Source: an uncultured Acidimicrobiia bacterium
Lineage (GTDB): Bacteria > Actinomycetota > Acidimicrobiia > IMCC26256 > JAENVU01
Reading direction: 5' to 3'
Length of the DNA stretch: 64,000 bases
Assembly (NCBI GenBank): GCA_963765075.1
Contig: CAVXVA010000001.1
Coordinates: 870,075 to 934,074 of the forward strand
In this document: positions 27,173 through 44,174 of the stretch, in pieces
Layout of the letters: each line of letters starts with the position of its first letter
Position numbering within the stretch: the first letter of the stretch is position 1
The notes under the pieces: generated by a model
Told to the model about the DNA's origin: nothing
The model's input: the letters and a program-made list of their open reading frames with translations, nothing else
The model's database searches: none
Position numbers and translations under genes: made by a program

Positions 27173-28066
27173 ATGAAAGTGCGAATCGGATACGGCTTCG
27201 GCGCACAGCGCGGATTCACCGCCGACGGATTCGGCGCAATGGTCGACGCGCTCGACCAACTCGGCTTCGACTCCCTCTGGCTTTCCGAACGCGTCACCGC
27301 CGACGCCCCCGATCCCGTCATCGGGCTCGCAGTCGCGGCGGGCCGGTCGAGCCGGCTGAAACTCGGGACCAGCGTGCAGGTCCTCCCGGGGCGCAATCCG
27401 GCACTCCTGGCCAAGGAACTTGCCACCCTCGACGTCTTGTCGGGCGGCCGATTCCTCCCGGCCTTCGGCCTCGGGATCGCCCACCCCGCCGAGCAACAGG
27501 CGTTCGGTATCGAGCGGGGCGAACGGGCCGCCTACTTCGAAGAGGCGCTCCCGCTTCTGCGCCGGTTCTGGCTCGAAGACGCGGTCGACCACGATGGGGA
27601 ACGCTTCCAGTACTCCGGGCTGCGAGTGCGTCCGCATCCGGTGCAACGGCCACCCGACATCTGGCTCGGTGGACGGGCGCCGGGCGAACTGCGCCGAGTG
27701 GGTCGTCTCGCCGACGGTTGGCTGGCATCGTTCTCGATGCCGACCGAGTGCGCCGCGGGCCGCACGGTGATCGAGACGACAGCAGCCGAACACCACCGCG
27801 AGATCGACCCCGAACATTTCGGCGCCATGATCTTCTATTCACCCGGGGAGATCCCCGAACCGATCCGCGCGTTGATCGCGCAACGCTCCCCCGCCGTCGA
27901 CCCGAACGAACTCGTTCCGAGCACGTTGGACCAGTTGGAGCGTCGTATCGGCGAGTACGTGGCGGTGGGATTCTCGAAACTGGTCCTGGTCCCCATGCAC
28001 AACCCCGAGCACTGGGCCGGGGAACTCGAACCGATCGCCGCGCGCGTCCGCCCGCTCGAGACCTGA
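27173..28066 (+). CDS. LLM-class (luciferase-like) F420-dependent oxidoreductase
   Basis: ...FDSLWLSERV...LKLGTSVQVLPGRNPALLAKELATLDVLSGGRF.PAFGLG... is present. Confidence 0.85.
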   Translation: MKVRIGYGFGAQRGFTADGFGAMVDALDQLGFDSLWLSERVTADAPDPVIGLAVAAGRSSRLKLGTSVQVLPGRNPALLAKELATLDVLSGGRFLPAFGLGIAHPAEQQAFGIERGERAAYFEEALPLLRRFWLEDAVDHDGERFQYSGLRVRPHPVQRPPDIWLGGRAPGELRRVGRLADGWLASFSMPTECAAGRTVIETTAAEHHREIDPEHFGAMIFYSPGEIPEPIRALIAQRSPAVDPNELVPSTLDQLERRIGEYVAVGFSKLVLVPMHNPEHWAGELEPIAARVRPLET

Positions 28067-33619: not shown

Positions 33620-34177
33620 TCAGCCGCCGTAGTTCATACGGGTGTCACTCATACCCAGGACCGGCGTGTCCTCGTCCTTGAGGAAATGGCAGTCGACGAC
33701 CTCGCCGGCGAAGAAGGTGTGGTTGCCGATCTCCATGCGGTCACGGAGTTCGCAGTCGAGGAACGCGACCGACTGCGTCAACACGGGCGCGCCGGTCGTG
33801 TGCTCCTCGTACGCGAACCCGTTGAGGGTCTTCGCATCCAGATCGACGTCGACCGGTTTGGTGAACTTGCGCACGATCGCGCGGTCTTCCTGATCGATGA
33901 GACACACACTGAAGACCTGGCCCGCCTCGATGAGTTCGTGCGTGAAGGCGTCGCGTTCGATGCCGACACCGACCCACTTCGGATCGAAGCTCAGTTGGGT
34001 GACCCAGTTCGTGGTCATGCCGTTGCGGCGGTCGCCCCTGTCGGTGCTCCCGACCACGTAGAGACCCGACGGCATCTTCCACAGCACCCGCCGCCGCAAC
34101 TTGTCGTACTCGATCTGATCGTCAGCAGAACTCACCCGCGCGGGGTAGGGCCCGACCGGCCCGTCTTTGGTTGCCAT
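33620..34177 (-). CDS. Flavin reductase family protein
   Basis: ...LWKMPSGLYVVGS...NGMTTNWVTQLSFDPKWVGVGI... is present. ATG 34177 was chosen inside the longer ORF. Confidence 0.85.
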   Translation of the reverse strand: MATKDGPVGPYPARVSSADDQIEYDKLRRRVLWKMPSGLYVVGSTDRGDRRNGMTTNWVTQLSFDPKWVGVGIERDAFTHELIEAGQVFSVCLIDQEDRAIVRKFTKPVDVDLDAKTLNGFAYEEHTTGAPVLTQSVAFLDCELRDRMEIGNHTFFAGEVVDCHFLKDEDTPVLGMSDTRMNYGG

Positions 34178-34183
34178 CGCCTC

Positions 34184-34189
34184 AGGGTA
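34184..34189 (-). promoter_or_regulatory. -10-like hexamer TACCCT, 6 nt upstream of the flavin reductase ATG (leaderless geometry)
   Basis: The minus-strand TACCCT is followed by a 6-nt spacer and ATG at 34177. Confidence 0.3.
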
Positions 34190-34302
34190 GGCACACCGCA
34201 GATCGGTCGAGGATGCGCTCGACGAGTTTCGGTGCAACGATCGGGTCGACCCCGAGACAACACCCTCATCTGATCGACGGGCAGGATCGAGGAGGCACAG
34301 CC

Positions 34303-35913
34303 ATGGACATGGTGAAGATCGCAACCTGGAGCGAGATTCCCGACCGCGAACCCATCGGCGTCACCGTCGAAGGCATCGACCTGGTGATCGTCCGCCAGGA
34401 CGATGAGCACTCCGTGCTCTACGGCCGGTGCCTCCACCGGGGCGCGCTCCTCGCCGACGGCCACATCGAGGGTGAGGACCTCATCTGTGGTGTCCACGGC
34501 TGGGACTACCGCATCGAGTCCGGCGTCAGCGCCTACAACAACGCCGAGGCGCTCGAGAAGTTCACCAGCGCGGTCGAAGGCGACGACCTCTTCGTGAACC
34601 GCACCGAGGTGTTGCAGTTCGCGATGCGTCACCCGCAGCCGTACACGCCCGACGTGTACCAGGGCTACTACCAAGACCCACACATGGTGCCGGAAGAACC
34701 GTTCGTCGCCTACATCCACGAGCTCGCGGGCAACGGTCTCACCAAGACCGGCCACCACGGTCCGCTCGGGGCGATGGGCGTGCCGCGCGACGAGCTACCG
34801 AAGTGGGACCACATCCAGTTCGTGACCGCGCAGCTCGCGCGGCTCCCTCACCTCGACGACGAGCCCGTCGGCACCGAGGTCTGCATCGGCCCGAATGCCG
34901 ACAAGCCGCTGTGGCTCGACATCCCGCTGTTCGTGTCGGACATGAGCTTCGGCGCGCTCTCCGAAGAAGCGAAGACCGCGTTGGCCCGCGGTGCCGAGCT
35001 CGCGGGCACCGGCATCTGTTCCGGCGAGGGCGGGATGCTGCCCGAAGAGCAAGCTGCGAACAGTCGGTACTTCTACGAGCTCGCCTCGGCCCGGTTCGGC
35101 TGGAACTGGGACGCGCTGAAGAAGGTGCAGGCATTCCACTTCAAGGGCGGCCAGGGCGCGAAGACCGGGACGGGCGGCCATCTTCCGGGCGACAAGGTGG
35201 TCGGCAAGATCGCCGAGGTGCGGGGCCTCCCCGAAGGCACCGCCGCCATCTCACCCGCGACGTTCCCGGACTGGCATTCGGTCGACGACTTCCGGCGGTT
35301 CGCCGACGATGTGCGCGAACAGTCGGGTGGGATCCCGATCGGGTTCAAACTCTCGGCCCAACACATCGAGGAAGACCTCGACGCAGCCCTCGCCATCGGC
35401 GTCGACTACGTCATCCTCGACGGTCGCGGCGGCGGGACCGGCGCGGCGCCGCTGTTGTTCCGGGACAACATCTCGGTGCCGACCATCCCCGCCCTGGCCC
35501 GCGCCCGTCGCCATCTCGACCGGCGGAACCGTCGCGACATCACGTTGGTCGCGACCGGCGGGCTGCGCCACGCGCCCGATTTCGCCAAGGCCCTCGCCCT
35601 CGGTGCCGACGCCGTGGCCGTCGCCAACTCGGCGATCCAAGCCATCGGCTGTCTCGGGATGCGCGCCTGCAACACCAACAACTGCCCCGTCGGAATCGCG
35701 ACCCAGAAGCCGCATCTGCGCGCCCGGCTCCCGGTCGACGAGGCCGCCGAACGACTCAACCGGTTCCTTCGGGCGACCGTGGAGCTGATGCAGATCCTCG
35801 CTCGTGCCTGTGGCCACACTCATCTGCGCGAGTTCTCGGCCGACGACCTCACCACGTTCGACCGTGAGATGGCCCACCTCACCGGCATCGCCTACGGCGG
35901 GGTAATGCTGTGA
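34303..35913 (+). CDS. Rieske [2Fe-2S] domain fused to a glutamate-synthase domain-2-like FMN/Fe-S oxidoreductase
   Basis: The N-terminus is CLHRGALL...CGVHGWDY. GltB-FMN-domain motifs follow: GGQGAKTGTGGHLPG, VILDGRGGGTGAAP and CLGMRACNTNNCPVGIATQ. GAGGAGG lies 9 nt before the ATG. Confidence 0.85.
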   Translation: MDMVKIATWSEIPDREPIGVTVEGIDLVIVRQDDEHSVLYGRCLHRGALLADGHIEGEDLICGVHGWDYRIESGVSAYNNAEALEKFTSAVEGDDLFVNRTEVLQFAMRHPQPYTPDVYQGYYQDPHMVPEEPFVAYIHELAGNGLTKTGHHGPLGAMGVPRDELPKWDHIQFVTAQLARLPHLDDEPVGTEVCIGPNADKPLWLDIPLFVSDMSFGALSEEAKTALARGAELAGTGICSGEGGMLPEEQAANSRYFYELASARFGWNWDALKKVQAFHFKGGQGAKTGTGGHLPGDKVVGKIAEVRGLPEGTAAISPATFPDWHSVDDFRRFADDVREQSGGIPIGFKLSAQHIEEDLDAALAIGVDYVILDGRGGGTGAAPLLFRDNISVPTIPALARARRHLDRRNRRDITLVATGGLRHAPDFAKALALGADAVAVANSAIQAIGCLGMRACNTNNCPVGIATQKPHLRARLPVDEAAERLNRFLRATVELMQILARACGHTHLREFSADDLTTFDREMAHLTGIAYGGVML

Positions 35914-36028
35914 AAGACACCACTTGCCGGTCGCTCCGCTCGCACTCCGTCCCGTTGTCGAGGCCGGGGCTCGCTGCGCGACTGCTCGCCTCTTCTCGTT
36001 CCTCGCTCCGGCTCGGAGGTCGTCGACC

Positions 36029-37990
36029 ATGACCCGCGACTCCAATGACCACACGCTGACGTTTCACAAGGTGGCGGAGTTGGATGATCTGCCGGATGGG
36101 CGGGTGCGGACGGTGCTGGCGGGCAAGCACTCGATCGCGTTGACTCGGGTCGGCGACCAGTACGGCGCGCTCGACAACCACTGCCCGCACCAGGGCGGAC
36201 CGCTCGGCGAAGGTTCGATCGAGAAAGGGATGCTGCGCTGCCCCTGGCACGGGTACGACTACGACCCGCTCACCGGAACTCCCCCATCGGGCTTCTCCGA
36301 CGCGCCGGCCTGCTACCCACTCGAAGTCCGCGCCGACGGTATCTATGTCGGCCTCCCGGCCGATCATCCGCACGAGCGGACCGTCTCGGATGTCATGGTC
36401 GAGACGATGGTCGAGTGGGGCGTCACCCACGTATTCGGCATGGTCGGACACTCCAACCTCGGATTCGCCGACGCGATGCGGCGCGCCGAAGTCGCCGGTG
36501 ACCTCACCTTCGTCGGGATCCGCCACGAAGGTGCCGCCGCGTTCGCGGCGTCGGCCTACGGCAAGCTCACCGGTCGGCCGGCCGCGTGCTTCGCGATCGC
36601 CGGCCCGGGATCGACGAACTTGCTCACGGGCCTCTACGACGCGAAGGCCGACCGCGCACCGGTGCTCGCGATCTCGGGTCAGGTGCCTTCGAAGGTACTC
36701 GGGCGGGGCGCGTTCCAGGATGTGGATCTCAACGCGGCGTTCGCCGCGGTGTCGTCCTACTCCAAGACCGTGCTCCCTGATTCGGACCATGCCGAGTTGA
36801 TGACACTCGCACTGAAACACGCGACCGTCCAGCGTGAGGTCGCGCACCTCGTGTTCCCCGACGAGGTACAGGAGAAGGTCGTCGGTGACTCGCCGCGCCC
36901 ATCCTCACCCGTCGGGCGCGTGGCCGATACGCAGATCGCTCCCCCCGCCGACGCGCTCCAGCGCGCACTCGACCTCATCGAGTCGGCGCGGCGACCGGTG
37001 ATCGTGGTCGGCCACGGAGCCCGCTTCGACATGGACGCGGTCCTCGAGCTGGCCAACACGCTCGGGGCGCCGGTGCTGACCACGTTCAAGGCGAAAGGGC
37101 AGATCTCCGACCACCATCCGCTCGGCGCGGGTGTGTTGGGGCGCAGCGGCACGCCGGTCGCGAGTTGGCTCATGAACGAATCCGACGTCCTGATCGTGCT
37201 CGGCGCGTCGTTCTCCAACCACACCGGGATCGCCTCGTACAAGCCCATCGTGCAAGTCGACTTCGACCCGATGGCGCTCGGTCGGTTCCATCCTGTCACC
37301 GTCCCGGTTCACGGTCACGTGGGCGTCACCGCGCGGCTGATCGTCGAACGGCTGGCACCGGGCGGCGAACGGGTCGATCAACGGCCCGACGTCGCCGCCC
37401 GCTGGGAGATCTGGCGGGCCGAGAAGGCGCGCCGGGTGGCCGACGACCGCGGGCTCGGAGTGTCGTCTGCGGCGATCTTCGACGCGATGAACCGGCACGT
37501 GCCGACCGACGCGGTGATGACCGTCGACGTCGGGAACCAGGCCTACTCGTTCGGTCGCTACTTCGAATGCACCGCACAGTCGGTGCTGATGTCGGGCTAC
37601 CTCGGTTCGATCGGATTCGGCTTCCCCGCGGCAATGGGTGCCTGGGCGGCCGTGGGCGACACCCGCCCAATCGTCGCGGTGACCGGCGACGGCGGGTTCG
37701 GTCAGTACCTTGCCGAGCTCACCACGGCCGTGAAGTACAACATGCCGATCACCCACGTGCTGCTCGACAACGCATCGCTCGGCAAGATCACGAAGGAGCA
37801 ACGGGCCGCGGAGTACGAGGTGTGGCACACCGATCTCCTGAACCCGGACTTCGCGGCCTACGCCGAGTTGTGCGGGGCGATGGGTCTCCGGGTCGATCGG
37901 GCCGACCAACTCGACGACGCGTTGACCCGCGCCCTCGCTCACGACGGCCCCGCGCTCGTCGCCGTGACCGCAGACGCCGAACTCATCTGA
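36029..37990 (+). CDS. Rieske [2Fe-2S] domain fused to a TPP-dependent pyruvate-oxidase/acetolactate-synthase-like enzyme
   Basis: The N-terminus is CPHQGGPL...CPWHGYDY. The TPP enzyme N-domain (...GVTHVFGMVGHSNLGF...IRHEGAAAFAASAY...) follows, with the TPP motif GDGGFGQY...NMPITHVLLDN. GGAGG precedes the ATG. Confidence 0.85.
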   Translation: MTRDSNDHTLTFHKVAELDDLPDGRVRTVLAGKHSIALTRVGDQYGALDNHCPHQGGPLGEGSIEKGMLRCPWHGYDYDPLTGTPPSGFSDAPACYPLEVRADGIYVGLPADHPHERTVSDVMVETMVEWGVTHVFGMVGHSNLGFADAMRRAEVAGDLTFVGIRHEGAAAFAASAYGKLTGRPAACFAIAGPGSTNLLTGLYDAKADRAPVLAISGQVPSKVLGRGAFQDVDLNAAFAAVSSYSKTVLPDSDHAELMTLALKHATVQREVAHLVFPDEVQEKVVGDSPRPSSPVGRVADTQIAPPADALQRALDLIESARRPVIVVGHGARFDMDAVLELANTLGAPVLTTFKAKGQISDHHPLGAGVLGRSGTPVASWLMNESDVLIVLGASFSNHTGIASYKPIVQVDFDPMALGRFHPVTVPVHGHVGVTARLIVERLAPGGERVDQRPDVAARWEIWRAEKARRVADDRGLGVSSAAIFDAMNRHVPTDAVMTVDVGNQAYSFGRYFECTAQSVLMSGYLGSIGFGFPAAMGAWAAVGDTRPIVAVTGDGGFGQYLAELTTAVKYNMPITHVLLDNASLGKITKEQRAAEYEVWHTDLLNPDFAAYAELCGAMGLRVDRADQLDDALTRALAHDGPALVAVTADAELI

Positions 37991-37991
37991 C

Positions 37992-39221
37992 GTGCTGATC
38001 GACCTCGCGCGTTCGCATCGCGGAGCGGTGAGGTACGAGCGGTCGACGTCGTCGCGGAATGGCAGGGCCGATTGGAGTCGGCGCACGCCGCGACGAACTG
38101 TGTCGCGGCGTGGAACCCGGCCGCGCTCGATGAGGCGGCGGAGCTTGGATCGGCAGCGGGCCGCCGAGGGTCCCATCGGTCCGCTCCATGGCGTTCCGGT
38201 CACGATCAAGGACTGGATCGACGTCGCCGGGATGGCCTGCTCCGGCGGTGAGAGCGATCCACCGCGATCGGGTGCCCGCGCGCAACGCGACCGTGGTGGA
38301 TCGCCTCCGAGCCGCCGGTGCTGTCGTGCTCGCGAAGACCGCGGTCCAGGTCGACAGCGAACTCTTCGGTGTCGTCCGCCACCCGCTCGCGCCGGATCGG
38401 TCACCGGGCGGGTCCAGCAGTGGCGAGTGTGCGGCGGTCGGTGCTGGCGGATCGCCCGTCGGATTCGGCAGCGATTCCGGCGGCAGCATCCGCGTTCCCG
38501 CCGCGTGGTGCGGGGTCGCCGGGCTCAAGCCGTCGGCGGGCCGAGTGTCGACCGTCGGGCACTTCCCCCATGCGGGCGAGCGGCTCGACGGCCGCACCCA
38601 GATCGGCCCCATCGCTTTGTCGGTCCGCGAACTCGCCGCGGTCCTGCCGATCATCGCCGGGCCCGACGGCCTCGATGCCGGACTCGCGCCGGTGCCACTC
38701 GGCGAACCGAGCGCCGTGTCGATCCGCGGCCTGCGCGTCGGGTGGGCGTTCGACGCCGCCGTCGAGACGCACGGGCCCATCGTCGACGCCGTGCATCGCG
38801 CCGTCGACACGCTCATCGCGAGTGGCGCCCAGCCCGCGGGTGTAGTCCCTCAGCACTTCGACGAGGCCATGACGGTCACGCTCGGCTATTGGCAGCGACG
38901 GGCCGGCCGGACTCTCCGGTTGGGACGTCGACGCCCACTTCGGGGCGTGGGATCGGTATCGACATCCGCATGCTCCGCGCCCATGCCGATGTCGACGTGG
39001 TCGTGATGCCGGCGACTACGGACCCGGCGCCGTTGCACCGCGAGATGACCGTCGAGGACTACCGGTACACGCTTCCCGCGAGCCTCACCGGCGCGCCCGC
39101 AGTGGTCTTCCCCATGGGTTCGGCCGATGGGCTACCCATCGCGGTGCAGGTGGTTGCGGCCCGCTGGCGCGACGATGTCGCACTGGCCGCCGCCATCGCG
39201 ATCGAAGCCGCACACCCATGA
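37992..39221 (+). pseudogene. Amidase (amidase-signature family) disrupted by at least five frameshifts
   Basis: Conserved amidase segments are spread over all three frames:
- LIDLAR / AFASRSGEVRAVDVVAEW...NPAALDEAAEL
- DRQRAAEGPIGPLHGVPVTIKDWIDVAGMACSGGE
- IHRDRVPARNATVVDRLRAAGAVVLAKT...GGSSSGECAAV...GSDSGGSIRVPAAWCG...LGYWQRR
- GPAGLSGWDVDAHFGAWDRY
- IDIRMLRAHADVDVVVMPATT...GAPAVVFPMG.ADGLPIAVQVVAARW. Confidence 0.75.
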
Positions 39222-40162: not shown

Positions 40163-41308
40163 TCACTCCAGCCGGTGCTGACTGGCGGGGAGCACGTAGA
40201 ACCAGAACGGCTGGGGTGCACCCGCGTCCTTCATCGCCTGCTGGGCCCGATGCAGCATCTTCCCGGTGACGGTCTGCTGCGCGAACCAGCTCTCGGCCGA
40301 TCGCGCGCCCGGGACGTGCTCCGAAAGCCCGGCGGCCGCCTGTTCGTAATAGCCGCGGATCGCGAGCCCGGCCGTCACCGGATTGTCGGGAATCTCGGCC
40401 TGATCCCACGGCGTGGCGTCGTCGGCGATCCGGGTGAACCCGCGGAGGGCGGCCTCCACGACGTCGGGATCGACCGCCGCCCGTATCCCACCCGATGCGC
40501 GATCGAATGCCTTGCGCAGACCGCGCATCTCGTCAACGGCCGCAGGGAGCGACGGATCGAGTCGCGCCGGCATGGGGCACGCGAGCGCAACGTCGACCTC
40601 GTCTTCGATCACGACCGGATAGGTCGCAAGCGTCGGTTCGGTCGCGTCGAGCAATCCAAACGCGGCCCGAAGCACCTCGTGTTGGAACTCAGGGTCGCGC
40701 GGTTTGCCGAGCGGCCGCCCGAGCGGGAACTGGCAGTAGAGGCCGCGCGGGATCGGCATCCGCGCCGCAACTTCGTGCATCGAGATCAGCGAGACGGTGG
40801 CGATCCCTGCGGCTTCGAACGTGTATGCGAGCGCACCGACCGTGCGCGTACAGAGCGGTCAGACGGGAGTGAGGAGGACGACGTCGGTCCCCTGCTCCTG
40901 CAAGCGATGCGCGGCCTGCGGGCCGGTGTCGTGGAGGATCGTCGCGAGGTCGGACTGCGCACCCATGAACGAAAAATGATTCGGCGCGACGCTTCCGATG
41001 GTTCCGTCGGCCGCGAGCTCATCGAGCCGATCCACCGGGTAGACGACGTTGCGGTCGAGCATCATGCCGCTGCGGTCGAGGTTCTGACTGTTGTGACTGA
41101 TGGTGACGTCGTCGCGGCCGTGCGGGAGGACCCGGTAGCCCGGGTCGAAGATGCCGAAACTGTCTTCCGACGCCAGATGCAGACCGGCGGTGGTGACGAT
41201 CGCAACTTGCGCGTCGGCGAGGTTCGGAGCAGCCGCGAACGGAGCGCCCTCCAGCTCGGGCACGGGCAGCGACGCCATCACTGCTCGCATGTCGTGGTCA
41301 GCACCCAT
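40163..41308 (-). CDS. Glycine/sarcosine/betaine/D-proline reductase selenoprotein-B (GrdB/PrdB) family protein; predicted selenocysteine encoded by in-frame TGA at 40859-40861
   Basis: Two track ORFs (40859..41341 and 40163..40780) are in the same frame and separated only by one TGA. Read-through gives ...VVLLTPV-U-PLCTRTVGALAYTFEAAGIATVSL...FPLGRPLGKP.... A SECIS-like hairpin follows the TGA. ATG 41308 is preceded by GAAGGA. Confidence 0.7.
40822..40852 (-). promoter_or_regulatory. Candidate bacterial SECIS element (selenocysteine insertion hairpin)
   Basis: In the mRNA, nt 15-31 after the U of UGA read GCGCAC-GGUCG-GUGCGC. That is a perfect 6-bp stem with an apical loop containing GGUC. 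A lower helix UGUA/UACA is possible. Confidence 0.6.
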
Positions 41309-41347
41309 GAAACGTCCTTCGCTCGTCCAGGCGGCCGGCAATCGGGG

Positions 41348-41578: not shown

Positions 41579-41965
41579 GTACGCAGTATGGGCCTCCGGA
41601 TGGAGTTCGACAACCAGGAGCGCGCGGCGTCACTCGGGACGTGGAATACGTGCGGGATATCCACTCCCGCCGCCGCGATCCCACCGCCAGAACACGACGT
41701 CGGGCGCTGCTCTCACTAGGGGCAACAAGAATCAGATCGGTGAACCGACCTCGGCAGCACCACCCGCTTCGGCACGCACCCCGACGACGCGACGCTACCG
41801 GGAGCCACACCAATCTCGATGGGTGGTGGAGTCGATGAGCGTTCGTGTCGACGGTCATCAAATACCACCGCGCATCAGGAATAGAACCCGTGAGCCGGCT
41901 GGACACTTGGAAGGACTTCGCAGCTTCCGGGGCATTTGTGCAGTCTGAGGGGTGGTCTCACCCTC

Positions 41966-43174
41966 ATGCCAGAATGCGAACTGATGTTCGATACTGACGA
42001 TTTCGTTGCTGATACGGCGTTCGCAGGGGTGGCCGAGACCATCGACCGGCTCCGCAGCGAGTCACGGGCCGAATGGTGCAGCGCGGCACGATCGCAACGG
42101 GTCAAGCAGATCGGTCAGAGCATCGAGGCGCTCCACGCCGAGTTCATCCGTGCCGTTGAGGTGTGGGACGGGGCGGGTGACCACGCCGCGGAGGGGGCCC
42201 TGAGTTCGACCGCATGGCTGACCCAGCATGTTCCGATGACCCGCGCCGCCGCGTCTCGGGCCGTGTCGGCGGCGCGCATGATCCGTCGTTCGGAACCATT
42301 GGCCGCGGCCCTTCATGATGGGCGTACCACCGTCGCGCACCTCGAGCAGGCGGCGAGGGCCGTCCACCGTCGCGAGGACATCTTCGAAACCCACGGAACC
42401 TCGCTGGTCGATGCCGCGACCGACGTCAGCCCCGAGGACTTCCGCGAGTGTGCCGCGTCCTGGCGGGCAAAGGCCGACGATCTCATCGGCGCACTCGACG
42501 ATCCGTTCGACGATGCCCGGGACGAACTCATCCTCTCCCCGACCACCGGTGGGCTCGGTCTGCGCGGATGGTTCCACGCCGCGGCCGGCGTCGAGATCAT
42601 GAACTTGATCGACACGTACGACCACCCCGACCCTGTGGACGGGGATCGTCCGCCTCGCACGATCGCTCAACGTCGGGCCGCCGCACTGTACGCGTTGTTG
42701 TTCGACGGTCGGGCGCTGAGCCCGAAGCAGGTCGATGTCGTGATCGACAAGGAGACTCTTCGCGCCGAATGGACGTCGGATCTCATTCGGACGCGCACCC
42801 ATGTCGAGGGCTACGGACCCGTTCCCTGTTCGCTCATCCGCAGCTGGCTGACCGAGGCGACACTCCGCCGCATTGTGTCCACCGAATCCGAAATCCTTGA
42901 CGTCGGGCGGAGCGCCCGCCTTGCCTCTCCTGCGCAGCGGCGGGCACTTCGCCACCGCGACGGTGGGTGTGTCATCCCGGGATGTCGCCGTCCGCCCCAA
43001 TGGACCGACGCTCACCACATCGTGACCTACCTCGGCGGAGGGCTGAGCGACCTCGCGAACTTCGCGCTGGTCTGTCGGCGCCACCACCGCATGCTCGACC
43101 GTGGCTGGATGCTCACGGGAAGTCCCGTCGCCGGGTGGGAGTTTTCCTCGGCGCTCGACCAGGCGCCGCCGTAG
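41966..43174 (+). CDS. DUF222 domain / HNH endonuclease (13E12-repeat-like) protein
   Basis: The C-terminal HNH motif is RHRDGGCVIPGCRRPPQWTDAHHIVTYLGGG...LVCRRHHRMLD, with a DUF222-like N-terminus. The start is uncertain (41966 or 41984). Confidence 0.85.
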   Translation: MPECELMFDTDDFVADTAFAGVAETIDRLRSESRAEWCSAARSQRVKQIGQSIEALHAEFIRAVEVWDGAGDHAAEGALSSTAWLTQHVPMTRAAASRAVSAARMIRRSEPLAAALHDGRTTVAHLEQAARAVHRREDIFETHGTSLVDAATDVSPEDFRECAASWRAKADDLIGALDDPFDDARDELILSPTTGGLGLRGWFHAAAGVEIMNLIDTYDHPDPVDGDRPPRTIAQRRAAALYALLFDGRALSPKQVDVVIDKETLRAEWTSDLIRTRTHVEGYGPVPCSLIRSWLTEATLRRIVSTESEILDVGRSARLASPAQRRALRHRDGGCVIPGCRRPPQWTDAHHIVTYLGGGLSDLANFALVCRRHHRMLDRGWMLTGSPVAGWEFSSALDQAPP

Positions 43175-43239
43175 CGACGGCTGGGCCGAACCCTCGGGTG
43201 TCCCATGCCCACAGATTGCATGCCCCCGCGAGAGGACCC

Positions 43240-43911
43240 ATGATGGAATCAGTGAGCGAGCCGGGTGGGTCCACACACGAAGACGATGAGCTCGTCGCGC
43301 GACTTCGCGCCGGCGATGAGACGGCGTTTCGGGATTTGCTCGACCGATTCGACTCGCCGCTCCGACGCGCCGCACGCACCTACGTGGCGACCGATGCCGC
43401 CGCCGACGAGGTCGTCCAGGACGTGTGGGTTGGCGTGCTTCGGGGCATCGACCGGTTCGAGCAGCGATCGTCACTCAAGACCTGGATCTATCGCATCTTG
43501 ATGAACATCGCCCGGACCCGCGGCACGCGCGACAAGCGCAGCATTCCGTTCGCGAGCCTGGGCCGTGACGTCGAAGACGACGATACGCCGACCTTTTCGC
43601 CCGACCGGTTCCACGACGCGCAGGGCGCGCATCCCGGACACTGGTCGGCGTTCCCGACGCGCTGGCACGATCTTCCTGAAGTGCGGGCCGTGGGCCACGA
43701 GACACTCGCCGTGGTTCGGGACGCGCTCGATCGTCTCCCGCCGACCCAGCAAGAAGTCGTCCGGCTCCGCGATGTGGAGGGATGGACGAGCGTCGAGGTC
43801 TGTAACACCCTCGATCTCACCGAGACGAACCAACGAGTGTTGTTGCACCGAGGCCGCGCCAAACTGCGGGCAGCGCTCGAGTCCTACTTCGACACCGAGG
43901 GGGAAGCGTGA
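43240..43911 (+). CDS. ECF (sigma-70 family) RNA polymerase sigma factor
   Basis: Region 2 is ...VQDVWVGVLRGIDRFEQRSSLKTWIYRILMNIAR and region 4 is ...PPTQQEVVRLRDVEGWTSVEVCNTLDLTETNQRVLLHRGRAKLR. GAGAGGA precedes the ATG. Confidence 0.9.
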   Translation: MMESVSEPGGSTHEDDELVARLRAGDETAFRDLLDRFDSPLRRAARTYVATDAAADEVVQDVWVGVLRGIDRFEQRSSLKTWIYRILMNIARTRGTRDKRSIPFASLGRDVEDDDTPTFSPDRFHDAQGAHPGHWSAFPTRWHDLPEVRAVGHETLAVVRDALDRLPPTQQEVVRLRDVEGWTSVEVCNTLDLTETNQRVLLHRGRAKLRAALESYFDTEGEA

Positions 43912-44174
43912 GCGACCTGGTCGACGAGATGGCCTGCCAAGAGTTGGTCGAACGGGTCACTGAGTATCTCGACTCGGCGCTGCCCGTCGTCGATCGCGAC
44001 CGCTTCGAGGAACACGTCGCCGAATGCCCCGGCTGCGAAGAGGTCCTGGGCCAGTTCCGCGCGGTCGTCGCGGTGAGCGGCCGCCTGGCGGCCGCCGACG
44101 TCGCCGCCCTGGACCCGTCGACGCGCGGCCAACTCCTCGACCTCTTTCGAGGGAGACCTCCAGGATCCTCCTGA
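43908..44174 (+). CDS. Anti-sigma factor, zf-HC2 type
   Basis: 88 aa with the H-x3-C-x2-C motif (EEHVAECPGC). GTG overlaps the sigma factor stop (GTGA). Confidence 0.8.
   Translation: MSDLVDEMACQELVERVTEYLDSALPVVDRDRFEEHVAECPGCEEVLGQFRAVVAVSGRLAAADVAALDPSTRGQLLDLFRGRPPGSS

Follow-up and report, generated by a model that had tools for sequence, protein, structure and literature searches.

The DNA analysed here, a window of 64,000 nucleotides, comes from a freshwater-sediment Acidimicrobiia bacterium and carries two adjacent genes, A and B, each of which encodes an enzyme with a fused N-terminal Rieske [2Fe-2S] domain (Table 1). The open reading frames of both genes and of a neighbouring flavin reductase-like gene match the coordinates given in the initial annotation, and every motif string quoted there was found in the translations. 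A GGAGG ribosome-binding site precedes gene A and gene B alike, and many relatives have a 4-nt overlap of the two genes in place of the spacer. No match to the sigma-70 consensus was found in the divergent intergenic region, and no terminator-like site in the A-B spacer. The sequencing runs containing this sequence are DNA runs only. In addition, a luciferase-like monooxygenase is encoded at 27173-28066, 5.5 kb upstream.

Table 1. Features of the A-B locus, numbered from the first nucleotide of the window
Feature	Position	Strand	Basis or remark
Flavin reductase-like protein, 185 aa	33620..34177	-	Flavin_Reduct PF01613, E 6.6e-35 (Pfam); divergent from gene A
Divergent intergenic region, 125 bp, flavin reductase/gene A	34178..34302	.	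Contains gene A GGAGG site; sequence read
Gene A: Rieske [2Fe-2S] + GltS-type FMN/[3Fe-4S] enzyme, 536 aa	34303..35913	+	
Rieske domain of A, aa 1-105	34303..34617	+	PF00355, aa 4-77, E 5.7e-14 (Pfam)
Rieske ligand codons of A	C43 34429-34431; H45 34435-34437; C62 34486-34488; H65 34495-34497	+	
Linker and N-terminal extension of FMN core, A aa 106-198	34618..34896	+	Alignment, model
GltS-type FMN barrel of A, aa 199-504	34897..35814	+	Glu_synthase PF01645, E 4e-86 (Pfam)
[3Fe-4S] Cys codons of A	C450 35650-35652; C456 35668-35670; C461 35683-35685	+	
A-B spacer, 115 bp	35914..36028	.	Contains gene B GGAGG site
Gene B: Rieske [2Fe-2S] + pyruvate oxidase/PoxB-type TPP enzyme, 653 aa	36029..37990	+	
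Rieske domain of B, aa 10-110	36056..36358	+	PF00355, aa 13-84, E 2.4e-14 (Pfam)
Rieske ligand codons of B	C52 36182-36184; H54 36188-36190; C71 36239-36241; H74 36248-36250	+	
TPP_N aa 118-234, TPP_M aa 310-435, TPP_C aa 500-646 of B	36380..37966	+	TPP_enzyme_N E 3.9e-35, TPP_enzyme_M E 1e-31, TPP_enzyme_C E 4.8e-35 (Pfam)
Cofactor-activating Glu of B, E167	36527-36529	+	
GDG of B, 553-555	37685-37693	+	
Mg-binding N581 of B	37769-37771	+	

Rieske domains and cofactor sites

Both N-termini are true, ligand-complete Rieske domains, fused as initially annotated to a GltS-type FMN module in A and to a TPP enzyme of the pyruvate oxidase (POX)/acetolactate synthase type in B, and no oxygenase catalytic domain accompanies them, again as proposed. 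The ligands of each domain have the spacing CxH-x16-CxxH and show no variation across homologues in a 35-sequence alignment. Among 162 related loci, they are present in 87 of the 92 full-length A ORFs and 91 of the 100 full-length B ORFs, the exceptions being miscalled ORFs or one CDGSH variant. The two domains share 28% identity, which contradicts the earlier view of one and the same built-in module, and the Rieske domain of B is nearer to that of a Ferric_reduct membrane partner, described below, than to that of A. The label "NirD-like" also proved imprecise, as PF13806 scores under the cutoff for B and is absent for A; among solved structures, A comes closest to T4moC and the NDO ferredoxin, and B to CarAc (5.5e-12) and T4moC (1.4e-9). 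Both domains thus resemble the ferredoxin type of oxygenase systems rather than NirD.

Judged from its sequence, A holds sites for a Rieske cluster, a [3Fe-4S] cluster and FMN. The GltS [3Fe-4S] motif, C450-x5-C456-x4-C461-P, had been missed in the initial annotation, and a motif census finds it in all 92 of the full-length A ORFs. Alignment to 7mfm, 1ea0 and 1llw shows that GltS residues E903, Q969, K972, R992 and S1011, which belong to the 2-oxoglutarate site, have their counterparts in E242, Q284, K287, R307 and S326 of A. GltS Q978 is replaced by H293, a His in 90 of the 92 A ORFs, so that the substrate of A may not be glutamate/2-oxoglutarate. The stretch between the Rieske domain and the barrel is conserved in sequence, yet its residues 111-133 and 149-169 are of low model confidence, and the AF2 model of A as a whole is mediocre (pLDDT 67.7).

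B, by its sequence, likewise has sites for a Rieske cluster and for TPP. Its scaffold is of the PoxB/POX type, a type that as a rule also binds FAD. Its end lies five residues past the point aligning with PoxB residue 527 of 572, and therefore the C-terminal membrane peptide of PoxB is absent from B. The Rieske-TPP junction is modelled rigidly by AF2 (pLDDT 84-92, pTM 0.81).

Pairing, partner genes and module exchange

The A-B pairing is conserved far beyond the source genome: adjacency was found in Acidimicrobiia, Alpha- and Gammaproteobacteria, Myxococcota and Bdellovibrionales, hence in at least four phyla, and is often translationally coupled. Both genes are present in 51 of the 162 loci, and in 39 of these A is followed by B on one strand, many with a 4-nt overlap, a linkage that speaks for the favoured reading below. 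Of about 80 loci retrieved with A, about 35 show the pairing, as do 32-34 of the 80 retrieved with B, and among loci having full flanks, B is lacking from 17 of 37 A loci and A from 5 of 13 B loci. It is therefore facultative, being present in about half of the well-flanked loci. In L113 and L144, B partners divergent GltS-like genes (34% identity). The initial annotation recognised no characterised system with this pairing, and the literature search likewise found no published work on the A-B pair or on either Rieske fusion.

No conserved third partner lies beside A/B in the Acidimicrobiia loci. Elsewhere, the operon of at least 10 loci includes a Ferric_reduct (PF01794)-Rieske membrane protein and, after it, a protein of about 255 aa with no Pfam match. 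The membrane protein, in whose PF01794 domain two His are invariant and three nearly so, lies beside A and B in L046, L063, L090, L110, L115, L141 and L155, and within the sequence available it accompanies A only in L074 and B only in L146 (a 4.9-kb contig); it is not encoded within the 64,000-nt window. Together with A and B, it accounts for all Rieske-fused proteins in the 162 loci, and one stand-alone Rieske ferredoxin (105 aa) occurs in the suf operon of L065. DUF5996 also joins related operons.

In relatives, the N-terminal domain is exchanged for other modules. CDGSH x2 replaces the Rieske domain on a GltS-like core 58% identical to that of A (P0243, P0244), and other GltS-like relatives carry Fer4_19+CDGSH, CDGSH+Fer4_19+Rieske, rubredoxin+CCG or 2x[4Fe-4S]; the B family includes CDGSH-Rieske-TPP and CDGSH-Fer4_19-CDGSH-Rieske-TPP variants. 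This swapping marks the domain as an interchangeable electron module. It also argues, together with the invariance of all four Rieske ligands, against the very improbable alternative that the Rieske domains are redox/iron sensors or dimerisation modules and that A-B adjacency reflects co-regulation only. ECF sigma factor genes, which recur near A/B in nine loci, and the stress induction of relatives of the CD0828 type (compared below) would fit such a role, but the [3Fe-4S] relay kept by A would serve no purpose other than to exchange single electrons with a centre outside the enzyme core.

The flavin reductase was initially counted as part of the system. It reaches no NCBIfam equivalog cutoff, the best being StyB, with 65 bits where 200 are required, and it adjoins A in 11 close loci among L003-L014 only (A at least 88% identical), being absent next to A from all loci in which A is at most 85% identical. 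The upstream UbiA and glycosyltransferase genes are conserved in the same 11 loci, so the adjacency is block synteny and not independent evidence; the reductase is a possible but unproven partner of A/B. A three-component, NAD(P)H-dependent system of the Rieske oxygenase kind, in which the reductase would reduce the Rieske domain of A, A would substitute for GltBD and B would merely share the operon or the reductase, is accordingly improbable. The divergent reductase here and in the 11 close relatives is consistent with it, as is an FMN_red flavoprotein (PF03358, non-homologous to the PF01613 reductase) next to or near B in six unrelated loci; moreover, flavoprotein reductases reduce the Rieske ferredoxins of oxygenases, to which the two domains are closest among solved structures. 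However, the PF01613 adjacency is limited to one clade, FMN_red adjoins B, which cannot accept electrons in POX-type chemistry, and the luciferase-like monooxygenase is an alternative client of the reductase. Of the initial interpretation, the ligand-complete fusions and the wide pairing stand, the latter as a facultative feature; the common module does not, the NirD label is imprecise, and the reductase link is confined to the closest clade.

Direction of electron flow

We tentatively favour, at somewhat less than an even chance, a reading of the sequences in which A and B are separate substrate:Rieske oxidoreductases that donate to a shared acceptor. The Rieske domain would serve as a built-in low-potential ferredoxin between the catalytic cofactors and an outside partner. 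B would oxidatively decarboxylate a 2-oxo acid, most likely pyruvate, with electrons passing from TPP through FAD to Rieske, whereas the substrate of A would be an alpha-amino acid, with L-glutamate the likeliest, which would be oxidised to the imino acid at FMN and so yield 2-oxoglutarate and NH4+, with electrons passing from FMN through [3Fe-4S] to Rieske. The two may work in sequence on one carbon skeleton, A turning the amino acid into a 2-oxo acid that B would then convert to an acid and CO2. For many Proteobacteria and further marine lineages, the proposed acceptor is the operon-encoded di-haem Ferric_reduct membrane protein with its cytoplasmic Rieske domain; for the Acidimicrobiia clade, a candidate is the FMN flavoprotein encoded next to the pair.

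The donor role of B is suggested by its closest characterised relatives, PoxB (E 6e-66) and POX, which are oxidative and electron-donating, and by the Rieske domain, with its rigidly modelled junction to the TPP part, that B has in place of the membrane peptide of PoxB. For A, the retained residues of the GltS 2-oxoglutarate site are in keeping with this reading. A GltS-like core 47% identical to that of A is fused to rubrerythrin and a rubredoxin-like domain and must be a donor, since rubrerythrin can only take up electrons; this relative and the rbr operon of CD0828 argue for the same direction in A. The occurrence of the membrane protein with both genes or with either speaks for a shared acceptor.

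The main rival, which we consider rather unlikely, is a closed donor-acceptor couple: B oxidises pyruvate, its Rieske domain reduces that of A, and A aminates 2-oxoglutarate with free NH4+. If true, the pair would amount to a glutamate synthase driven by pyruvate and independent of NAD(P)H, with B supplying the electrons otherwise delivered by GltD/ferredoxin. In vivo, canonical GltS works reductively and receives its electrons at the [3Fe-4S] cluster, which is also present in A; this counts against the favoured reading, and so does the coupling of a donor B, whose relatives are obligate donors, to a potential acceptor A, as such a loop makes a third partner needless. The A-then-B order with 4-nt overlaps in several phyla is typical of fixed-ratio subunits, the Acidimicrobiia loci hold no other conserved partner, and other GltS-like paralogues also pair with B. 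However, many well-flanked loci hold A alone or B alone, the membrane protein implies an external acceptor or donor, rubrerythrin-fused and CDGSH-only relatives suggest a donor role for A, and A, having neither amidotransferase domain nor ammonia tunnel, would rely on free ammonia. Also counting against the favoured reading, the neighbouring flavin reductases of NAD(P)H type (PF01613 here, PF03358 in the six other loci) would more naturally be donors. The A-B pair is probably the sign of a route, so far unstudied, by which electrons leave the metabolism of amino acids and 2-oxoacids.

Comparison with known systems

A shares with the GltS alpha subunit and Fd-GltS (1ea0, 1llw, 7mfm) the PF01645 FMN TIM barrel, the [3Fe-4S] motif and the five site residues, but lacks the amidotransferase, central and GXGXG domains, scores 135 bits against an NCBIfam cutoff of 1047, has His at Q978, and has a fused Rieske domain rather than ferredoxin or GltD as electron partner. 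CD0828 of C. difficile, a rubredoxin-GltS-like FMN/[3Fe-4S] protein of the rbr-perR-sor operon, protects against H2O2 and was assayed with NAD(P)H only, showing slow reduction (PMC11980386). Like A, it has a short (about 500 aa) GltS-like core, preceded by a linker and a small iron-sulfur domain for electron transfer; unlike A, it has rubredoxin, belongs to a peroxide-defence operon of an anaerobe and has no TPP partner. It is a relative of similar architecture rather than an established orthologue. Type 5 CDGSH proteins, catalogued only (Lin et al., 2011, PMC3174974), combine tandem CDGSH, in place of Rieske, with the GltS-like core of A, and one such gene adjoins a B homologue in L096.

B is matched best, both by structure and in NCBIfam, by E. 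coli PoxB (pyruvate:ubiquinone oxidoreductase, 3ey9/3eya) and L. plantarum pyruvate oxidase (1pox), which share its full TPP_N/M/C scaffold, cofactor-activating Glu and GDG...N motif. With 390 bits where 742 are required, B nevertheless reaches no equivalog cutoff, and it differs in having a Rieske domain added and the lipid-binding peptide absent. The oxygenase Rieske-type ferredoxins (CarAc, T4moC, BphF, NDO ferredoxin) have the same ligand spacing as A and B and likewise no bc1-type disulfide cysteines; A and B differ in their covalent fusion to the client/donor enzyme and in the absence of an oxygenase component. Finally, the membrane partner shares its PF01794 transmembrane domain with the di-haem proteins of the Ferric_reduct superfamily (MsrQ/YedZ, NOX, FRE), and carries a fused cytoplasmic Rieske domain in place of their FNR-like/flavin partner.

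Domain architecture of the Rieske fusion proteins A and B

The window encodes two adjacent proteins, A, in which a Rieske domain is fused to a GltS-type FMN enzyme, and B, in which a Rieske domain is fused to a TPP enzyme of the pyruvate oxidase (PoxB) type, together with a flavin reductase. All three open reading frames lie where the initial annotation had placed them and contain every motif it quoted, and domain scans found PF00355 and PF01645 in A, and PF00355 and TPP_enzyme_N/M/C in B. In this DNA of 65-70% G+C, the best relatives of which are Acidimicrobiia MAGs from freshwater sediment, a GGAGG ribosome-binding site precedes both A and B, and nothing terminator-like was seen in the spacer between them. 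Scans of the window revealed no sigma-70-like promoter sites, terminator-like matches at a frequency not above that in shuffled sequences, and no Rfam or tRNA matches. The sequencing runs that carry the window sequence are DNA runs only, from freshwater-sediment and groundwater metagenomes, with no RNA runs among them.

Coordinates of features in the window and in related loci (L-numbers; loci found with A or B)
Feature	Location	Coordinates	Strand	Remarks
Flavin reductase	window	33620-34177	divergent from A	PF01613, E 6.6e-35
A	window	34303-35913	+	536 aa; Rieske PF00355 aa 4-77, E 5.7e-14; Glu_synthase PF01645 aa 199-504, E 4e-86
B	window	36029-37990	+	653 aa; Rieske aa 13-84, E 2.4e-14; TPP_enzyme_N/M/C, 1e-31 to 4e-35
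Amidase	window	37992-39221	+	just downstream of B
PrdB/GrdB-like ORF	window	40163-41341	-	in-frame TGA at 40859-40861
HNH-motif protein (DUF222 type)	window	41936-43174	+	
ECF sigma, zinc-finger anti-sigma	window	42967-44174	+	
CDGSH-Rieske-TPP form of B	L096	128-3886		directly followed by CDGSH-type A
Long form of B	L127	7332-9944		870 aa
Long form of B	L130	3542-6154		870 aa
Long form of B	L144	6289-9036		870 aa
DUF5996	L031	7578-8471		
DUF5996	L055	7621-8403		
DUF5996	L084	481-1326		
Membrane di-haem-Rieske gene	L046	7953-9771		
Membrane di-haem-Rieske gene	L063	7982-9810		
Membrane di-haem-Rieske gene	L074	6602-8276		
Membrane di-haem-Rieske gene	L090, L110, L115, L141, L146, L155			
Na+/H+ exchanger (PF00999)	L155	6303-7541		
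Na+/H+ exchanger (PF00999)	L063	4722-5972		
THAP4-like gene	L060	5239-5802		

Both Rieske domains (A 52.2, B 53.4 bits) exceed the PF00355 gathering cutoff of 20.3. Their ligands, C43/H45/C62/H65 in A with the spacing CxH-x16-CxxH and C52/H54/C71/H74 in B, are invariant in 35-sequence homologue alignments of the two proteins (A3 and A4, respectively), and the ligand set is present in 87 of 92 A ORFs and 91 of 100 B ORFs from related loci. On the basis of this invariance we reject cluster-less NirD-like domains, and we regard it as very improbable that the Rieske domains are non-redox. A Rieske non-haem iron oxygenase system is also rejected, since A, B and the neighbouring genes contain no catalytic mononuclear-iron domain, in agreement with the initial annotation. 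The same annotation had called the two domains NirD-like and one and the same module, and both terms are imprecise: B matches the NirD-type PF13806 at 21.6 bits, below the gathering cutoff of 27, A gives no match, and the two domains share only 28% identity. Both are closest to Rieske ferredoxins of oxygenase systems, the nearest solved relatives being T4moC for A (1.2e-6) and CarAc (5.5e-12) and T4moC (1.4e-9) for B.

The part of solved glutamate synthases to which the core of A can be aligned is limited to residues ~856-1190. It has in common with GltB and Fd-GltS the FMN barrel, the [3Fe-4S] cysteines (C450-x5-C456-x4-C461-P in A, kept in 92 of 92 related ORFs) and the 2-oxoglutarate-site residues: E242, Q284, K287, R307 and S326 of A align, in a numbering counted off the alignment, with E903, Q969, K972, R992 and S1011 of Synechocystis Fd-GltS, which we take from the GltS structural literature to have catalytic or binding roles. 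The exception is GltS Q978, which corresponds to H293 in A and to His in 90 of the 92 ORFs. However, PF00355 and PF01645 are the only domains in A; the Ntn glutamine amidotransferase, central and GXGXG domains of GltB and Fd-GltS are absent, and the score against the GltB equivalog NF008730 is 135.5 bits, far below the NCBIfam cutoff of 1047. These features mark A, as judged from its sequence, as a GltS-related FMN/[3Fe-4S] enzyme and not a glutamate synthase large subunit. It holds predicted sites for a Rieske cluster, a [3Fe-4S] cluster and FMN; its AF2 model has a pLDDT of 67.7, and confidence is low for the cofactor loops and residues 111-169.

The TPP part of B is nearest to E. coli PoxB (6e-66) and pyruvate oxidases, ahead of acetolactate synthases, and falls under every NCBIfam cutoff (best PRK08611, 389.7 vs 742 bits; PoxB PRK09124, 310 vs 792 bits). 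It carries the TPP_N/M/C domains and the GDG-x24-xN Mg/TPP motif of pyruvate oxidase and PoxB; the activating Glu E167, G553-D554-G555 and the Mg-binding N581 are invariant among homologues, and the position before N581 is mostly D/H/K/R, not N. Because the last PoxB residue aligned is 527 (of 572) and B stops 5 residues on, the C-terminal membrane-binding and activation peptide of PoxB is missing from B. Predicted sites for a Rieske cluster and TPP are carried on a POX scaffold, and the AF2 model is good (pLDDT 81, pTM 0.81), with a high-confidence Rieske-TPP junction. A sequence search of structures found no solved chain spanning a Rieske and a catalytic domain.

The N-terminal modules vary in both families. 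In the sister proteins P0243 and P0244, tandem CDGSH replaces Rieske on a 58%-identical GltS-like core, and other modules found on this core are Fer4_19+CDGSH, CDGSH+Fer4_19+Rieske, rubredoxin+CCG and, in an archaeal type, 2x[4Fe-4S]. Similarly, B also occurs as CDGSH-Rieske-TPP and as a long form, CDGSH-Fer4_19-CDGSH-Rieske-TPP, which in L130 and L144 lies beside or near an FMN_red flavoprotein. The predicted domains of the A and B families come from a common set of small iron-sulfur modules, and the swaps in both families are strong evidence that the N-terminal domains would act as interchangeable electron wires. A further homologue, P0262 (625 aa), combines a GltS-like FMN/[3Fe-4S] core, 47% identical to A, with a C-terminal rubrerythrin and a rubredoxin-like domain, which implies that this protein may be a substrate-driven peroxidase.

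Distribution and pairing of A and B

Homologue searches with A and with B scored at least 8000 sequences each, and the best 120 clusters of each all show the architecture of the query at 76-100% identity. At 50% clustering, the A family collapses to essentially one representative (P0241, 67%), and farther Rieske-GltS proteins share 39-44% identity. With each species represented by a single genome, a scan detected A in 337 of the genomes, and 80 of these loci were kept for analysis. Between phyla, A is 67-72% identical. Identity to A is 79-99% in Acidimicrobiia loci and 67-77% in Gammaproteobacteria, Alphaproteobacteria, Nitrospinaceae, Planctomycetota, Myxococcota, Gemmatimonadota, Chloroflexota, Acidobacteria and others.

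B adjoins A in ~35 of the 80 loci found with A. These include nearly all close Acidimicrobiia (A at least 79% identical), with L021 lacking B, and also Arenicellales, Porticoccus, Kordiimonadaceae, Sulfitobacter, Bdellovibrionales and Myxococcota; on two complete-chromosome-scale contigs the genes overlap by 4 nt amid unrelated flanks. When metagenome contigs were scanned with B in turn, 32-34 of 80 loci proved to have A or a GltS-like gene that is divergent. Where full flanks are available, B is present in 20 and absent from 17 of 37 loci found with A, and A is present in 8 and absent from 5 of 13 loci found with B. Altogether, both genes occur in 51 of the 162 related loci, across phyla, so we reject chance adjacency. 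In 39 of the 51, A precedes B on the same strand. The pairing is therefore conserved well beyond this genome, in several phyla, and the link between A and B is far above chance, yet facultative.

The flavin reductase fared differently. The divergent gene beside A is real, as initially described, but its link to A is limited to the closest syntenic clade: tblastn located it in 11 loci only, in each of which A is at least 88% identical. An upstream UbiA prenyltransferase and an MGDG-synthase-like glycosyltransferase are also kept in those 11 loci, so the adjacency provides no evidence independent of shared ancestry. The protein shares PF01613 with two-component flavin reductases (HpaC/StyB/RutF), but its best NCBIfam match, StyB, reaches 64.8 bits against an equivalog cutoff of 200, and no flavin-dependent monooxygenase adjoins it, a luciferase-like gene lying 5.5 kb off. 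A chain in which NAD(P)H would reduce A through the flavin reductase and the Rieske domain is a lesser rival that we consider improbable. A non-homologous FMN_red protein (PF03358), which six unrelated loci encode next to B or close by, gives some indirect support for a flavoprotein partner.

Neighbouring genes and possible electron flow

Neighbouring ORFs in the related loci were clustered with a GC3 filter against the antisense ORFs of high-GC DNA. DUF5996 (PF19459), which has no known function and on which a literature search found nothing, occurs in 19 loci, where it frequently separates A from B, and an SDR gene recurs in 10 loci. At least 10 loci contain, in operons with A and/or B, a membrane protein in which a Ferric_reduct (PF01794) transmembrane domain is joined to a Rieske domain at the C-terminus. 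In this membrane di-haem-Rieske protein, two His are invariant and three more nearly so; six helices are predicted, and since both its ends are positive, the positive-inside rule would place its Rieske domain in the cytoplasm. Among cultured bacteria, Glaciecola sp. 33A carries A together with this membrane protein. In eight loci its gene is followed by that of a ~255-aa membrane-anchored Cys-rich protein without a Pfam match (p255), and in L141 the gene order is A, membrane-Rieske, p255, DUF5996, B. Within the window, none of these partners was found. Across the 162 loci, no Rieske-fused proteins other than A, B and the membrane protein occur, and a lone stand-alone Rieske ferredoxin (105 aa) is encoded in a suf operon in L065.

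Several other genes were observed nearby. A Na+/H+ exchanger adjoins A or B in 14 loci of marine lineages, and 4 loci have a gene for a periplasmic YHS-domain protein. In L039, L042, L060, L070 and L080, stand-alone A is immediately preceded by the gene for a THAP4-like haem-binding beta-barrel (nitrobindin-type); four of these five loci are Nitrospina-group. ECF sigma factors occur near A or B in 9 other loci, and the window itself, from sequence alone, has an HNH-motif gene of the actinobacterial DUF222 type followed by ECF sigma and anti-sigma genes ~5 kb downstream of B. The amidase gene next to B is split over two frames, with at least six single-base indels relative to the intact L003 orthologue (91% DNA identity); the adjoining A and B are intact, and a pseudogene in decay is more probable than a general assembly error. 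In the PrdB/GrdB-like ORF (selenoprotein B family), the TGA is followed by Pro-Leu-Cys (U-x-x-C), and with read-through the NCBIfam PrdB score increases from 80 to 115 bits, the match crossing the stop. In a search for a SECIS element, the 70-nt stretch that surrounds and follows the TGA folded no better than shuffles; this ORF is a candidate selenoprotein or Cys-to-stop pseudogene.

The membrane di-haem-Rieske protein is a candidate membrane acceptor, or transmembrane electron conduit. Because POX-type chemistry is oxidative, B would donate electrons, and these would exit via the Rieske domain, standing in for the membrane anchor of PoxB. A could in principle run in either direction. We tentatively favour A as a donor as well, at somewhat less than an even chance, because the rubrerythrin-fused paralogue must be a donor and because CDGSH-only paralogues would poorly reduce FMN. 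The latter point assumes that these CDGSH domains have potentials near 0 mV, like that of mitoNEET. In addition, the membrane di-haem-Rieske protein shares operons with A alone or with B alone, and as B can only donate, a common acceptor is the simplest reading. The main alternative is a closed couple in which B would pass its electrons to A, giving glutamate from pyruvate, 2-oxoglutarate and ammonium; this would fit the translational coupling of A and B and the Acidimicrobiia loci without a third conserved partner, and we judge it possible, if rather unlikely.

The Rieske domain might be a plug shared for docking and electron transfer in a modular "bus". Such a bus would be an input branch of bacterial electron transport that avoids NAD(P)H and has not been described before; this wider proposal is doubtful. 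A, B and similar cytoplasmic dehydrogenases would each bear a Rieske (or Rieske + CDGSH/Fer4_19) wire, and electrons would pass from Rieske to Rieske, either between A and B or onto the membrane di-haem-Rieske protein, which would deliver them either into the quinone pool or, across the membrane, to a partner in the periplasm.

Significance and relation to known systems

The catalytic families, the Rieske ferredoxin fold and fused electron-transfer domains as a theme are already well known. What is new is that Rieske domains are fused to a GltS-like core and to a TPP enzyme resembling POX, that the pairing of the two fusions is conserved, and that a wider gene set surrounds them. Both fusions occur commonly, with very strong conservation, and the "bus", if true, would be widespread in sediment and marine bacteria. 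If A and B are dehydrogenases, glutamate-type and pyruvate-type carbon would enter electron transport independently of NAD(P)H in sediment and marine lineages such as Acidimicrobiia, Woeseiaceae, Nitrospinaceae and Planctomycetota. If, instead, B drives A, glutamate would be made by a new route that needs neither reduced pyridine nucleotide nor ferredoxin.

A and B proteins are annotated with generic names only, and full-text literature searches found nothing on the two Rieske fusions or their pairing; papers cataloguing the CDGSH-GltS fusion and one study of CD0828, the sole studied relative found, alone surfaced. A and B would also help to explain what substrate is used by short GltS-like proteins bearing a fused iron-sulfur domain, such as CD0828 and type 5 CISD. 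CD0828 of C. difficile is a rubredoxin-GltS-like protein encoded in the rbr-perR-sor operon; its mutant is H2O2-sensitive, and the protein is reduced by NAD(P)H only slowly (PMC11980386). The CDGSH-GltS fusion, listed in catalogues as "type 5 CISD" (PMC3174974; PMC5859297), has tandem CDGSH before the FMN domain, whereas A of the window has a Rieske domain in that place.
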